DNA of 64,000 nucleotides from a virus. The position numbers and the translations under genes are program-made. Positions 5,599 through 37,552 of the stretch are shown here, one piece after another (position 1 is the first letter of the stretch; every line of letters begins with the position of its first letter). The stretch is from positions 1 to 64,000 of IMG/VR virus record IMGVR_UViG_3300031414_000009; one strand, 5' to 3'. The notes beneath the pieces are model-generated. The model did no database searches, had not been told where the DNA came from, and worked only from the letters and a program-made list of their open reading frames with translations.

Positions 5599-5710
5599 GG
5601 CATAAAAAGACGGTCCCCGAAGGGACCGTCGAAACGCGCTATTTAAGGAATGTGTACAGCCTAAGGTCCCCCGTTACCCGTAGCGCCCCTGACACAGACT
5701 GTAACACATA
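5599..5710 (-). ncRNA. Candidate ~110-nt structured RNA with own promoter and terminator
   Basis: TTAC-N16-TATG at 5707-5730; 12-bp stem TGTGT(T)ACAGTCT/AGGCTGTACACA; terminator GACGGTCCC-TTCG-GGGACCGTC-TTTTTATGCC. Confidence 0.5.
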
Positions 5711-14965: not shown

Positions 14966-16027
14966 TTACTTTGTACTCGCAAAGCGTTTCATCACAGCCT
15001 GAGCACGATTATCCGTTACCGCAAACTTACCTAATGTCCGTAACACAGACACGAGTTCCATTTGCGAATAGTGTTTGAGAGAATCGCCATAATAGTCGAA
15101 TACACCTCCGTCACGAATACCCGCTTTCCGCATTGCTACAGCAGCCGGGTTTTTGTTGGTATGTCGACGCACCACTGATATAAAATCAGCAATTGCCATG
15201 CGACTACCGTCAAGGTACTTGGACACGTAGTGTGCTGACTTCAATACATCACGAGACTTATTGTCGCACACGGTCATCAACGCGATTACATCGCGGATTG
15301 TCATCGTATCTACCATCTCGATGGGTAGCGTTGACTTATATTTAAGCCAATCGTAGATGACGTTCATGTTACCTATCAGTGACATTGAGCTAGGCGCGCG
15401 CGCCCACGCACGCACCTTAGCGTATGCTTCAGTTCCAACCATTTGCTCCAACGACAGACCGGTGTGTTGTTCTAAGAACACATCGCCTGAGTCAAAGCGC
15501 CCGTTGATAACGAATTCCATGAATGAGGATAACTCAATCAAGTATCCGTTGGCAGACATCACTAGCTTGGACAAGACCACCAGAACATCGTTACTGTAGG
15601 TCGTAGGAATGATGATGATATCAGAATTCAATCCTACCTTCGCTAGTGCCTTGTTCATCGTTGCGTGCTCTTCCTGGTTCTTGGGGACAGGCCAGAAGAG
15701 GATGTCGGGTTCGGAAACCCCAACCTGTAGCTCAACATTGACGCCGGCGGGTTTACGATCAACGATTTCGATGATGTCGATTTCTGGCTCAGTCGGGTCA
15801 TCAACTTCAGACCAATCAGTGTACTGACCAATATCGATTTGCGGGAACAGCTCTTCCCCTACTGTTACATCCACCCAATCACTCTGAGTTGAGTCGGATG
15901 CATTGCCCGGCTTTGCCTTAGGCGTAGTTGTTTCGTCATCGATCATGGTGACAGCGTACATTGCTAATGACGCTAGTGTCGTTGCAATCGCAACCCCGAT
16001 CGTTGAAACCACAAGTTGTCTATTCAC
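14966..16027 (-). CDS. Hypothetical membrane-anchored protein
   Basis: N-terminal hydrophobic helix, acidic linker. Confidence 0.7.
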   Translation of the reverse strand: MNRQLVVSTIGVAIATTLASLAMYAVTMIDDETTTPKAKPGNASDSTQSDWVDVTVGEELFPQIDIGQYTDWSEVDDPTEPEIDIIEIVDRKPAGVNVELQVGVSEPDILFWPVPKNQEEHATMNKALAKVGLNSDIIIIPTTYSNDVLVVLSKLVMSANGYLIELSSFMEFVINGRFDSGDVFLEQHTGLSLEQMVGTEAYAKVRAWARAPSSMSLIGNMNVIYDWLKYKSTLPIEMVDTMTIRDVIALMTVCDNKSRDVLKSAHYVSKYLDGSRMAIADFISVVRRHTNKNPAAVAMRKAGIRDGGVFDYYGDSLKHYSQMELVSVLRTLGKFAVTDNRAQAVMKRFASTK

Positions 16028-16386
16028 ACTTCACCTCCTAAGGTGTATGGGATTTTATACGCCTTGCATACTGCGATCAGGTACTCCACCAGTAAGTGGC
16101 GGTGACAGAACTTGCCGGCCTTGCAGTAGCAGGCAATAGCAATCTTATCCTTAGATAGCAGTGCAAGCCACTCGTCCTTGTTTTTCAAAAAGGACTGGCG
16201 CATGAGTTCATGATAAACTTCTGTATAAGCGGCTTCGGATATCACACCAGACTTAACATCCATTACGATGCTCCAAGTAGGCGCAAACGCAGGAAGGCCA
16301 TCTTTTACAGTCGTGTTGATTAACTCAATACCCAGCTCCTTGCACTTTCTCCACTGTGCAATCTGAACTGTGTATATCGTTACCAT
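16024..16386 (-). CDS. DUF488-family protein
   Basis: IYT, FAPTW, Y..LM, ACYCKAGKFCHRHLL. Confidence 0.75.
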   Translation of the reverse strand: MVTIYTVQIAQWRKCKELGIELINTTVKDGLPAFAPTWSIVMDVKSGVISEAAYTEVYHELMRQSFLKNKDEWLALLSKDKIAIACYCKAGKFCHRHLLVEYLIAVCKAYKIPYTLGGEV

Positions 16387-16535
16387 TCTGAGTTGTCGGG
16401 TTCGTCTGGGTCAGTGAATGGACGCGTGAAATCGCTGGCACCTTCTACTTGCTGCTCGATCCACGCCATACGTTCGTCGAAGTCCGGTAGACGCTCGTTC
16501 AGTTCCTGGTGATACTGTTCGGCTTCTCGACACAT
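16380..16535 (-). CDS. Small acidic protein (51 aa)
   Basis: MCREAEQY...; GAGG SD; overlaps next start. Confidence 0.55.
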   Translation of the reverse strand: MCREAEQYHQELNERLPDFDERMAWIEQQVEGASDFTRPFTDPDEPDNSEW

Positions 16536-16583
16536 TTTACTATACCTCTGTTAAATAAGTAATTTTTTACTTTATTGGTTTAT

Positions 16584-16775
16584 GATTTGAGAGAAATGCT
16601 CTCGATGGTTGACACAACACGCATGCAGCAGCAGACGCTAGCAGCAATGCAGATGTTGACCAGTTGTAGGGGGCGGCTCCTGTGATCATTGCCTGATGAC
16701 AGGCGCTTGAGATATCGGGAAGCCGCCACCACACGAAGACAATTGGGGAGCACCTTCGGGTGTTCCTCTTATGCC
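16584..16775 (+). ncRNA. Candidate structured RNA with tRNA-like acceptor stem + ACCA
   Basis: Three hairpins with G-U pairs valid only on + strand; GGCGGCT/AGCCGCC-ACCA; UUCG terminator + TTATGCC. Confidence 0.55.
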
Positions 16776-16825: not shown

Positions 16826-17386
16826 ATGCGAGTACTGTGGTACTTAAGTTGGATACCATTAGCCATAATGGCTGTGGTCACGGGGTTGCTTGCTTACCCC
16901 TTCGTTCCCATTGCAGTTCTGTTCCGTAAAAGGGAGAGGTTGCCGTGGATATTCTGGTGGCTGGAAACGTACGACAACCCGATCTACGGGGAACCGTCGC
17001 ATATCCGGCGCTGGGAAAACTTTGTAGCCGCACATCCAAAGATAGGACCCTATGTACAGCGGGTCGCGTGGCTCTGGCGCAACAAAGCATATAACTTTGA
17101 CTATTGGATCTGTGGGCGGGAATTCAGTGGTCCGTTCCGATTGTGGGGTAATCCGGGCGTAGAGTCAGGTTCACCAGTGGTGAGCGAAGGCTATGTGTTC
17201 ATACTCACTCCCAAGACCTGGTGTCTCTTTGCATTCTTGCCGATCGTTAAGGTAGGCGACTACCAGTACTACCTCAGGCTGTACTTAGGGTGGAAAACTA
17301 AGAAACTTGGTTCTCACCCAGAAGCCCATGAACGGGGTATGTTGGCAAGCCACGTCAATCCGTTCAGGCGGATAAAAATAAAATAG
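16826..17386 (+). CDS. Conserved phage membrane protein
   Basis: Hydrophobic N-terminus, WLWRNKAYNF, RLYLGWK; GAGGAGG SD. Confidence 0.75.
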   Translation: MRVLWYLSWIPLAIMAVVTGLLAYPFVPIAVLFRKRERLPWIFWWLETYDNPIYGEPSHIRRWENFVAAHPKIGPYVQRVAWLWRNKAYNFDYWICGREFSGPFRLWGNPGVESGSPVVSEGYVFILTPKTWCLFAFLPIVKVGDYQYYLRLYLGWKTKKLGSHPEAHERGMLASHVNPFRRIKIK

Positions 17387-35181: not shown

Positions 35182-36915
35182 TTAGTTAAGACCGACGATC
35201 TTAATTGCTTCCGTGATCTCACCCAGCGGTACGGAGACAGCGTTGTACGACTTAGGGCTTGTCTGTGAGAGCATTAAGATAGATGGGTAGACACGCATAC
35301 CAGTCGGAACAGGACGAGCTTCTAACCAATGTGACCCCGCCCATTCCGCTATCGCGTCGTCATGTCCCTGTGCGGTATTGACGATATAGACGCCTGCACG
35401 AACTTCGATAAACTGAACGCGCTTTTCATCAGAACGAATCTTTACGTTTTCAGTAGGCAGGTACTGGCGAATGTGCGCGGCGCTCATCGGGTATGCCTTA
35501 AGATAATAATCGGTTAACTCTTTCCAGTTGGATACCTCACCGATAATTTCACTGTAGGTCGCGACGTACTGCATTGCTGCTAGCGTAGCCTGCTTAGGGT
35601 AGCCTTGGGAGGCCACACCAGTTAAGACTCTCAGGATCTCTTCTGGGAGCTTCAGCTGGGTAGTCGGGTCCGTCTTAGTCTGGACCATTGCCTCAATCAA
35701 CCGCAGGCGTTTTTCTTCAGCCCATTGCTGAGCATCCACCGGGAAGAAATGCTTCACCCCATCGTTTTCGTAAATGACTGGGTTAGCCAGCGGTGTCAGG
35801 ACGTGGGACTGCTTACCTAACCATTTAATGGTCGTGCCAGTTTCCATCCAGAACGTAGCATATGGGTTAGGTGTGAGCGTGTACTCAACCATACCCAACT
35901 CGAATCCATCCTCTGTGCGACGCCGAGTCACACGGATATCGCGATATGCTTCACCCTTGGCATTCCATTCAGATTCGACGAACGCCTGGATAGGAACAAT
36001 CGCTAATCCATTAGCCAGTCGAGTCAGGTTACGTCTGTAGGCAGCCACGTCGCCGACTTGTCGTGCGCTAACCGGGATGCTAGCCATATGTGAACCAACT
36101 TCAGCGTAGGTGCTGGCGTATTGACTAGCACTGATTCCTTTACCGCTTAAAAACGCGAGCAGTGCTTCCACGTCTGTGCGCGCGTGGCGCTTCAGGATAC
36201 CGTCGTGCATCGCCAACCGAATTTCGCAATCCATAGACCAATTCGACTGCATGTTCTCAGTTACAAACTTTGGTGAGGTCAGTAACATATCGAGATGCCA
36301 CAGTTTAATGGCTAGGTCGTGCAGTGATGCAATGCGAGTAAAGTCGTCGTGCGTTTTGACATCCTGGTTCCACGGTTGGTTCATTAACCAGACGTTTTCA
36401 GGAAGATCGTGTTTAGCGTCCCAGCGAGGACGATCGTCTACCAGTGTAAAGTTACCTTCACCGAATATTTCAGTCAGGTGCTCTACTTTATCGCCAGCTT
36501 TGGCCGGGTCTAAGATGATAACAAAGTCGGGTCTCCATGACAGCTCGGCGAACGCCACTTCAGATAAAGCAGCCGCGTCCGGGTGGAAGCCACGATGCGT
36601 GCAAATGCCGACACTAGAGCCATGTTTCTTCAATCGTTCCACAGTCTGGTTGAAACGATCGTTACCTTCACGCACACGACGTTCGGTCATGAACAACCCT
36701 TCAGCCAGCACCACGTCTAAGCCACCGTTAGTGTTAGCTGTGGTCAGATAAACGCCCTCAGGGGGTAATGGGTAGCCTTTTTCGGCAACGCGGCGACGCA
36801 GGGACAGGAATGTGTCATTCAGAGTGTCGTCCCAATCCAGAGCGACAAAGTCCAACATGCGAGGACTGGTAAAGGTTAAATCTTTAACGAAAGATGGTTC
36901 TTCGATATTGTACAC
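35182..36915 (-). CDS. HAD-superfamily 5'(3')-nucleotidase-like domain fused to unknown domains
   Basis: ALDWDDTL, THRG, K, LVDD, NQPWN; GTG start after GAAGGA. Confidence 0.7.
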   Translation of the reverse strand: MYNIEEPSFVKDLTFTSPRMLDFVALDWDDTLNDTFLSLRRRVAEKGYPLPPEGVYLTTANTNGGLDVVLAEGLFMTERRVREGNDRFNQTVERLKKHGSSVGICTHRGFHPDAAALSEVAFAELSWRPDFVIILDPAKAGDKVEHLTEIFGEGNFTLVDDRPRWDAKHDLPENVWLMNQPWNQDVKTHDDFTRIASLHDLAIKLWHLDMLLTSPKFVTENMQSNWSMDCEIRLAMHDGILKRHARTDVEALLAFLSGKGISASQYASTYAEVGSHMASIPVSARQVGDVAAYRRNLTRLANGLAIVPIQAFVESEWNAKGEAYRDIRVTRRRTEDGFELGMVEYTLTPNPYATFWMETGTTIKWLGKQSHVLTPLANPVIYENDGVKHFFPVDAQQWAEEKRLRLIEAMVQTKTDPTTQLKLPEEILRVLTGVASQGYPKQATLAAMQYVATYSEIIGEVSNWKELTDYYLKAYPMSAAHIRQYLPTENVKIRSDEKRVQFIEVRAGVYIVNTAQGHDDAIAEWAGSHWLEARPVPTGMRVYPSILMLSQTSPKSYNAVSVPLGEITEAIKIVGLN

Positions 36916-36916
36916 G

Positions 36917-37552
36917 TTACAGTCCTTCTGGAATAAAGTTGATAGAGTGAAGTTCCTGAACCCACTCAGGTCGCGAGCTATCGGTGTCACCACCAAACTT
37001 CAGAACGATGCGGTCATTTTCCTGTAGCCAGTACTTATTGTTCAACCACAGCAATACGTTCTCGTCGTTGATAATAACGCGATCGATGATGTTGTAGTTA
37101 ACGCGAATAGGCTCACTGATTGATACGGTGTTTGGATCAATGTCTAACTTACCGAGCGGAGAGAGTATTCTCCCCAGCTTATTAACCAAAGAGATGACGC
37201 CGATTGTGCCAACCAGTTCAACAGTCTTTGGTATAAGTCGGAATTTAACACGGATGCGGGAATCTTTCTTACTGAAGAGTATCGCACAACGATCATACGA
37301 GATCTGTTGGCCGAATTCAGATCCAACCAACTTGAACGGTTTCTGGGGCTTGAACACCAAACCGTGCCGGTTGTTATTCGACGTCGTGTAGAGACCAACG
37401 ATCAACGCGAGTCTCAGTGCAGCGATCTCTTCCGTAGACAGAGTAACCTCAACATCCTGTATCTTCACTCTGAAGAACGCTTCTACTACAAGTCCATGTT
37501 CCTGTGCATAGTCGAGCATATGCAAATAAGCAGGCTTAGCTAAATCTACCAT
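36917..37552 (-). CDS. Hypothetical protein
   Basis: ORF. Confidence 0.7.
   Translation of the reverse strand: MVDLAKPAYLHMLDYAQEHGLVVEAFFRVKIQDVEVTLSTEEIAALRLALIVGLYTTSNNNRHGLVFKPQKPFKLVGSEFGQQISYDRCAILFSKKDSRIRVKFRLIPKTVELVGTIGVISLVNKLGRILSPLGKLDIDPNTVSISEPIRVNYNIIDRVIINDENVLLWLNNKYWLQENDRIVLKFGGDTDSSRPEWVQELHSINFIPEGL

Follow-up and report, generated by a model that had tools for sequence, protein, structure and literature searches.

The locus considered here raises the question of which RNA, and with what role, is specified by an intergenic gap of a virus DNA where a chain of hairpins can be read on the plus strand and one of them, a perfect 7-bp stem, is followed by ACCA like the acceptor end of a tRNA. 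The DNA analysed (the window) is a stretch of 64,000 nt, positions 1 to 64,000 of the IMG/VR record IMGVR_UViG_3300031414_000009, and a first-pass annotation had taken the segment for a tRNA mimic, a minihelix decoy or an aberrant tmRNA-like RNA. The comparison with relatives leads elsewhere: a conserved, structured, non-coding small RNA gene very probably exists here and, more tentatively, its product can be read as a cis-antisense regulator of an early operon.

The genomic context is that of a jumbo phage. The ORF 3-2024 on the minus strand matches the Phikzvirus chimallin family (PF25677, 7.8e-36), and the DNA polymerase shares 74% identity with its counterpart in Erwinia phage pEa_SNUABM_54 (272 kb) and about 40% with those of phiKZ-like phages; on these two matches the source phage is a chimallivirus, i.e., a nucleus-forming phiKZ-like jumbo phage, and a T4-like context, which was also considered, is rejected. 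The window is the start of a partial record (166 kb, 61% complete), and pEa_SNUABM_54 (MW879341), which carries a relative of the RNA, is an isolate grown on Erwinia amylovora. In nucleus-forming jumbo phages the gene programme is driven by two phage-encoded polymerases and, to our knowledge, the switch-off of their early genes is poorly understood; an RNA lying head-on to an early promoter in a cultivable Erwinia amylovora phage is a candidate for an RNA-based control of timing.

The RNA would be about 185 nt long, extending roughly from 16588 to 16775 on the plus strand, and would begin with the hairpin P1, continue with the long irregular hairpins P2 and P3, and close with a terminator typical of the phage group. 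Its parts are the following:

16588-16593/16599-16604, plus strand: P1, 5'-proximal hairpin UGAGAG/CUCUCG with the loop AAAUG
16606-16614/16654-16662, plus strand: P2, long hairpin with the 9-bp base UGGUUGACA/UGUUGACCA
16666-16670, plus strand: conserved linker GUAGG between P2 and P3
16670-16730, plus strand: P3, long irregular hairpin that holds the next two elements
16672-16678/16721-16727, plus strand: 7-bp stem GGCGGCU/AGCCGCC within P3
16690-16705, plus strand: inner hairpin of P3, GCCUG/CAGGC
16728-16731, plus strand: ACCA tail (A-CCA), not conserved and partly paired
16745-16768 and 16769-16775, plus strand: phiKZ-type intrinsic terminator, a 10-bp UUCG hairpin followed by TTATGCC
16597-16686, plus strand: 29-codon ORF overlapping the RNA

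The hairpins described in the first-pass annotation, the 7-bp stem with its ACCA, the inner hairpin, and the UUCG hairpin with TTATGCC are all present where it had placed them. Its proposal of a structured plus-strand RNA with a terminator of its own is borne out by the fold, whose minimum free energy (MFE) is -82.2 kcal/mol against -59.1 +/- 4.1 kcal/mol in dinucleotide shuffles (z -5.64, with none of 200 shuffles as good), and by helices that covary in the relatives. Rfam matched no family above its gathering threshold, and lowering the cut-off to E<=10 brought up just two fragments at chance level; the RNA thus forms a new family, absent from Rfam and matching no described phage RNA.

The relatives were reached through the DUF7338 and DUF8224 neighbours in a large protein index and then through the contigs, with the addition of one IMG/VR contig and of a 46-nt nucleotide match that led to pEa_SNUABM_54. 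Apart from this match, nucleotide searches in phage and E. coli collections found nothing; pattern scans of viral and metagenome collections returned only the contig L002 or chance matches in AT-rich coding DNA, and a scan of viral contigs guided by the DUF8224 protein gave no match. Eight copies of the RNA (seven distinct) were collected in five lineages: the window with L002 and L026, L007 with L023, L008, pEa_SNUABM_54 (L014), and L025. The covariance model R1, built on two near-identical sequences (window and L002), detected L007 and L008 over their full length and was too narrow for pEa_SNUABM_54; the model R2 gave strong matches to L026 and L023 and weaker ones to L025 and pEa_SNUABM_54, the last only in part. 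The RNA is single-copy in each genome and always occupies the same gap, with the DUF8224 gene block on one side and the DUF488-N3a block on the other; no paralogue was found elsewhere in three phage records, where the weak matches were other terminators.

In the eight-sequence alignment, which holds few lineages and was fitted to the plus-strand model, standard pairs occupy 93.5% of 278 cells, against 72.1 +/- 1.9% in shuffles and 42-48% when the partners are slid, and both-sided changes affect 29 of the 46 pairs, against 14.9 +/- 2.3 in shuffles and at most 9 after sliding; the covariation by which the first-pass annotation had proposed to judge the structure is therefore found. The helices contribute in different ways. 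P1 is paired in 100% of the cells of the seven distinct sequences, with a loop of 4 to 7 nt and one compensatory change, in L025 (GAGUG/CACUC), and the base of P2 is paired in 90% of the cells, with both-sided changes in four of nine pairs, below an apex that is GCA-rich, variable, and wholly different from lineage to lineage. The outer helix of P3 is paired in 95.6% of the cells and shows compensatory changes in 10 of 13 pairs, the inner helix in seven of eight, and the stem of the terminator in seven of ten; the apical loop of P3 (AUGA/AUAA) differs in each lineage. The window, L002, L026, L007, L023, and L008 all carry the linker GUAGG.

The strand on which this structure operates can be read from the G-U pairs. 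In the alignment A6 (four sequences, 47 pairs), 168 of 175 cells are paired on the plus strand, 26 of them as G-U, and 142 of 175 on the minus strand, none as G-U, and none of the plus-strand mismatches is an A-C that would become G-U on the other strand. The asymmetry that the first-pass annotation had seen in favour of the plus strand thus holds over the same 47 pairs in several sequences, and because of it the fold is selected on the plus strand.

The 3' end is marked by the terminator hairpin followed by CTTATGCC, which fits the criterion of a stem-loop with TTAT and K-Y-Y-G-T (PMC10914365). In phiKZ more than 70% of the terminators mapped by ONT-cappable-seq are a stem-loop with TTAT in ...YTTATKYYGT (PMC10914365), and the same motif is found in 201phi2-1 (PMC11512511). 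In the 166-kb record TTATGCC occurs at 40 sites, where about 20 are expected, and 28 of the 40 directly follow a stable hairpin, compared with 20% of random positions; in keeping with the phiKZ motif, hairpin plus TTATGCC is the standard terminator of the chimallivirus group. A scan for classic terminators gave no match and a scan for sigma-70 promoters no full promoter, both of which are accounted for by a phage that uses its own signals and its own RNA polymerases. The genes upstream are all on the minus strand, which upholds the remark that no flanking gene needs a terminator in the gap; for the same reason plus-strand transcription must begin within the gap, and it would end at about 16772-16775. 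Other hairpins with (T)TTATGCC(GT) stand, for example, at 5605, 9378, 12715, 17424, 26823, 30755, 34182, 40000, and 43467 of the window, some terminators of this kind being bidirectional (124093/124121), and the motif could serve to delimit transcription units genome-wide.

The start of the RNA and the elements on the opposite strand involve the following features:

16557-16570, plus strand: A/T-rich quasi-palindrome AAGTAATTTTTTAC (GTAA-N4-TTAC), candidate upstream promoter element
16581-16586, plus strand: -10-like hexamer TATGAT, 2 nt before GAGAG
16805-16773, minus strand: early-type promoter, with the core AGATACACATTAT at 16797-16785 and GTGA at 16780-16777
16380-16535, minus strand: conserved 51-aa ORF, first of the early operon
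16024-16386, minus strand: DUF488-N3a gene (Pfam match PF22751, 3.1e-10), second of the early operon

On the plus strand the elements follow each other in the order AAGTAATTTTTTAC, about 10 nt, TATnnT, 2-3 nt, and GAG(A/U)G. The quasi-palindrome is identical in the window, L002, L023, and L008, and takes the form GTAATAAAATAC in pEa_SNUABM_54; the series TATnnT, 2-3 nt, GAG(A/U)G recurs in every lineage, with TATGAT, TATTCT, TATACT, or TATAGT as hexamer and TAATAG/AATAGT in pEa_SNUABM_54. Sites of the AAGTAATTTTTTAC type with at most two mismatches number four in the window against 0.46 expected. These elements suggest a plus-strand start at about 16588-16593, which would place P1 at the very 5' end of the transcript; from the candidate promoter to the terminator there are about 185 nt, with no conserved ORF between them.

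One further site of the AAGTAATTTTTTAC type, at 2255-2242 on the minus strand upstream of the chimallin leader, is the only one to agree in orientation and geometry. Here, at 2255-2075 (minus strand), AGGTAATTTTTTAC is followed after 11 nt by TATAAT, ATA, GAGAG..., and a 5' hairpin, and about 140 nt further on by a GUGCCC/GGGCAC hairpin with AAUGCC; this unit precedes the early promoter of chimallin and could be either a further small RNA or a second chimallin leader of greater length. The GTAA-N4-TTAC quasi-palindrome occurs in both orientations. A second class of promoter-like sequences (12841, 5730, 14961, and 30984, minus strand) is composed of an A-rich tract, TTAC, a spacer of 16-17 nt, and (TTA)TATG; it precedes short structured units and genes, e.g., that of DNA polymerase, and resembles the TAC(T)...TATG middle/late motifs of phiKZ.

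The opposite strand carries the element that the picture of a simple divergent gap had missed: the plus-strand RNA of the first-pass annotation stands, and just past its terminator, abutting it and pointing into the RNA gene, there is an early-type promoter motif. Its consensus, obtained by motif search, is ATTTTnAGATATATAnTACCnnnGTGnA; in the 166-kb record 21 sites, the one at 16805-16773 among them, score above 12, the 99.99th percentile being 7.0, and all of them are on the minus strand upstream of ORFs, chimallin included. Further members of the family are found, for example, at 2069, 11772, 21786, 30243, 34159, 46269, 46938, and 59635 of the window, all on the minus strand. The motif resembles the T-rich, AT-rich early promoter of phiKZ (PMC8244752); this likeness, together with the position before chimallin, is the ground on which the promoter is called early-type by analogy.

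The motif faces the RNA gene in the window, L002, L007/L023, and pEa_SNUABM_54, with matrix scores of 12.0 in the window, 16.7 in L002, 11.9 in L007, and 24.3 in pEa_SNUABM_54. The copy of the window is a weak match, with a score of 12.0, three mismatches in the core and no T-rich tract, and that of L008 scores 0.2 with the ungapped matrix. In pEa_SNUABM_54 the 17-mer TTTCAGATATATATTAC, with at most two mismatches, is present at 15 sites on one strand only (none in the control), and a perfect match occurs just once, in the copy that faces the RNA gene. In this phage the promoter is placed at 211205-211221 of MW879341, the RNA on the strand complementary to about 211231-211430, and the gene beyond it is 00249. 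The conservation of CCCUCAC past the terminator is explained by the same promoter, since this heptamer is the complement of its start region (GTGAGGG); a long-range helix between GUAGG and CCCUCAC was considered and dropped, as neither side varies.

The other early-type promoters are 23-81 nt from their ORF, while the one facing the RNA is about 250 nt from the 51-aa ORF (16535), and the additional length of the leader is exactly the RNA gene read backwards. The position of the promoter beyond the terminator, on the opposite strand, therefore suggests that the RNA is fully antisense to the unusually long leader, about 245 nt, of an early operon. The first ORF of this operon is called as a gene (51-61 aa) beside DUF488-N3a in L023, L025, and L026; its sequence differs by about 27% between L002 and the window, a level consistent with coding DNA. 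The DUF488-N3a gene adjoins the RNA locus in all the relatives with enough flank (L023, L025, and L026).

On this arrangement is built the reading of the RNA as a cis-antisense small RNA controlling the early operon, to which a probability close to, though somewhat short of, even is assigned, and in which it is from the sequence that one deduces whether either strand is transcribed, where and when transcription starts, and what it regulates. The early promoter, firing into the RNA gene from just past its terminator, would produce a leader to which the RNA is perfectly complementary from about +1 to about +190, and the operon, encoding the 51-aa protein, the DUF488-N3a protein, and others, would be controlled in cis. 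This could proceed through an RNA-leader duplex, with subsequent cleavage or destabilisation, and/or through the collision of the converging polymerases, and the folded stem-loops would provide the RNA with stability and with loops for contact. The helices are kept while the loops and the primary sequence drift, which fits a cis-antisense RNA, whose complementarity to the target is automatic. The complementarity does not reach the ribosome-binding site of the 51-aa gene, from which the RNA stays about 45 nt away, so any effect on this gene must be indirect.

RNAs of this kind are known in phages. Cis-antisense RNAs facing converging promoters include sar of P22 against ant, OOP of lambda against cII, and C4 of P1/P7; they are 70-80 nt long, and most of them mask a ribosome-binding site or work at a defined site together with RNase III. 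The present RNA is like them small, strongly folded, ended by a terminator, and encoded against the leader or the beginning of the coding region in a regulated operon, with promoters less than 250 nt apart; unlike them it would measure about 185 nt and stay short of the ribosome-binding site, and the polymerases, provided by the host for sar, OOP, and C4, would here be multisubunit enzymes encoded by the phage. Within the same virus group, ONT-cappable-seq has revealed 11 sRNAs in 201phi2-1 and, in phiKZ, an sRNA upstream of gp182 and four antisense RNAs (PMC11512511, PMC10914365). With these sRNAs the RNA described here, predicted from sequence, shares the virus group, the terminator motif, a predicted distance from start to terminator below 250 nt, and a structure conserved across related phages; in contrast, it matches none of them in sequence or model, belongs to an Erwinia/enterobacterial clade rather than to Pseudomonas phages, and is antisense to the leader of an early operon, whereas an sRNA of the phiKZ group lies in the 5' UTR of a tail gene. 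RNAs of this kind have precedents both in phiKZ-like phages, with their short-unit sRNAs and antisense RNAs, and, more generally, in the cis-antisense RNAs of phages.

Part of the conservation is not needed for pure antisense pairing. The first 5 bp of P3 (of the type GGCGG/CCGCC) and GUAGG are nearly invariant while neighbouring stem positions covary, which hints at a sequence-specific partner, and upstream of the terminator most lineages carry an A-rich single-stranded segment (AAGACA-like). A structured RNA acting in trans, as a protein scaffold or decoy or as a base-pairing sRNA whose antisense position is incidental, would account for these traits, and 201phi2-1 and phiKZ make sRNAs that presumably act in trans; however, no extended complementarity was found elsewhere in the 166-kb record, where the best antisense match is 13 nt (E 0.37), the loops are not conserved, and no known RNA family matches, so that such a role is considered rather unlikely. 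Constant synteny over no more than five lineages does not discriminate between an antisense and a trans role.

The gene that follows the RNA in the window offers a different target for control in cis:

16826-17386, plus strand: DUF7338 membrane-protein gene (186 aa, PF24027), downstream of the RNA

The RNA could be the 5' leader or attenuator of DUF7338, acting through a regulated read-through of the terminator; the two are co-oriented, with the RNA immediately before the gene, no obvious separate plus-strand promoter is found in the 50 nt between them, and 8 of the 11 sRNAs of 201phi2-1 derive from premature termination in 5' UTRs (PMC11512511). The gene is present in the window, L002, L026, L007, and L008, but it is absent from pEa_SNUABM_54, L023, and L025, in which the RNA and the terminator are conserved (in pEa_SNUABM_54 and L023 together with the block past the terminator) and no plus-strand ORF follows; in L023 (3440-3530) a Shine-Dalgarno sequence and a 24-codon remnant of DUF7338 are left between the same flanks. 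No alternative antiterminator pairing is evident either, and a leader function is quite improbable; as the sole role it is refuted by the genomes lacking DUF7338. Since the RNA persists in three lineages without this gene, it is a gene standing on its own and not merely the leader of DUF7338, although, under the cis-antisense reading, read-through of the terminator may also make it the 5' leader of DUF7338 where the latter is present. DUF7338 itself has 534 homologues in T4-like phages, beside tRNA clusters, with about 47% identity to hundreds of these copies, and behaves as a presence/absence cassette in the jumbo-phage clade; it looks like an accessory gene exchanged horizontally between unrelated phage groups.

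That the functional fold should be the minus-strand early leader, i.e., a structured 5' UTR, with a silent plus strand, is very improbable. A consensus early promoter does point through the region, and in pEa_SNUABM_54 the two strands fold alike (z -4.5 and -4.75); against this, the 26 G-U cells of the plus strand become A-C mismatches on the minus strand, with no reverse case, the z of the minus strand in the window is just -2.92, and a terminator oriented on the plus strand would be purposeless without plus-strand transcription.

The tRNA-like reading, with P3 as a mimic of the tRNA acceptor, cut by RNase P at 16671/16672, ending with the CCA at 16731, and serving as a decoy, as an aminoacylatable RNA, or as a tmRNA-like RNA, is highly improbable. 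A stacked helix of 11-12 bp precedes RCCA in the window, L002, L026, and L023, and a precedent exists in phages P1/P7, where the precursor of the C4 antisense RNA is a CCA-dependent substrate of RNase P. The tail, however, is not conserved: behind the conserved ...CGCC strand it is A-CCA in the window and G-CCA in L002, L026, and L023, but G-UCA in L007, C-UUU in L008, G-CCU in pEa_SNUABM_54, and U-CUA in L025. With six tail variants among the relatives, ACCA fails as the defining feature that the first-pass annotation had made of it, and a lack of conservation of ACCA was one of the outcomes that this annotation had itself named as refuting its model. The ACCA end is a local accident of one lineage.

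Its CC is moreover predicted to pair with the GG of the GUAGG linker (columns 99/179 and 100/178, GC in most sequences). The nucleotides flanking the 7-bp stem likewise pair as GG/CC in the window, GGUG/CACC in L023, AGGUG/CACUU in L007, and AGGA/UCCU in L008, and the stem is extended at its base in the MFE folds of every lineage, from which the "acceptor stem" is to be seen, as the folds predict it, as the middle of a longer rod. ARAGORN, run on the window and on the entire 166-kb record, found no tRNA or tmRNA gene, and Rfam gave no tRNA match even at E<=10 and no tmRNA match; neither a T-loop, nor a cloverleaf, nor a tag ORF was found by the two programs, in accordance with the absence of D and T arms that had already been remarked. 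A tRNA-like processing would also discard P1 and P2 as a 5' leader, together with the terminator, and these parts are all conserved in structure. The mimic, decoy, and tmRNA-like interpretations of the first-pass annotation are consequently abandoned.

With tRNAs, the T4 RNAs rnaC and rnaD, and tmRNA, the locus has in common a GC-rich 7-bp helix with RCCA in some lineages and, with rnaC and rnaD, a stable appearance; it differs from them in having no cloverleaf, T-loop, or tag ORF and in the unconserved CCA. A kinship with rnaC/rnaD was considered and rejected, as the models R1 and R2 find nothing in the tRNA regions of T4 (L004) or S16 (L003), the phage is not T4-like, and the 166-kb record has no tRNA gene or cluster. 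A perfect 7-bp stem with ACCA in one genome, which turned out to be no tRNA feature once the relatives were compared, calls for caution. A double use of the gene, in which the antisense RNA of the lineages with RCCA would also yield, through the host RNase P, an acceptor mimic of about 60 nt engaging host proteins that handle or target tRNAs, so that the gene is at once antisense and tRNA-end decoy, has a very slight probability.

The idea that the 29-codon ORF encodes a micro-protein is scarcely credible, since the frame is open in the window, L002, and L026, all of the window's own lineage, but the start codon and the open frame are missing in L007, L008, and L023, and 7 of the 29 residues differ between the window and L002 through base changes (G-U to A-U and A-U to G-U) that preserve the pairing of P2. 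The ORF reported in the first-pass annotation is thus present and not conserved; six-frame translation found no ORF common to four lineages in any frame, and the RNA appears to be non-coding.

A further observation concerns the apex of P2, in the region overlapped by this ORF: the 18 nt at 16635-16652 (plus strand) are perfectly identical to 35569-35586 on the minus strand (E 3.8e-4 within the record), in the sense strand of a 604-aa gene (35182-36996). The match has the same sense as the mRNA of this gene, so the small RNA cannot pair there. The apex is not conserved in the other lineages; the identity could be a low-complexity coincidence or the trace of a recombination.
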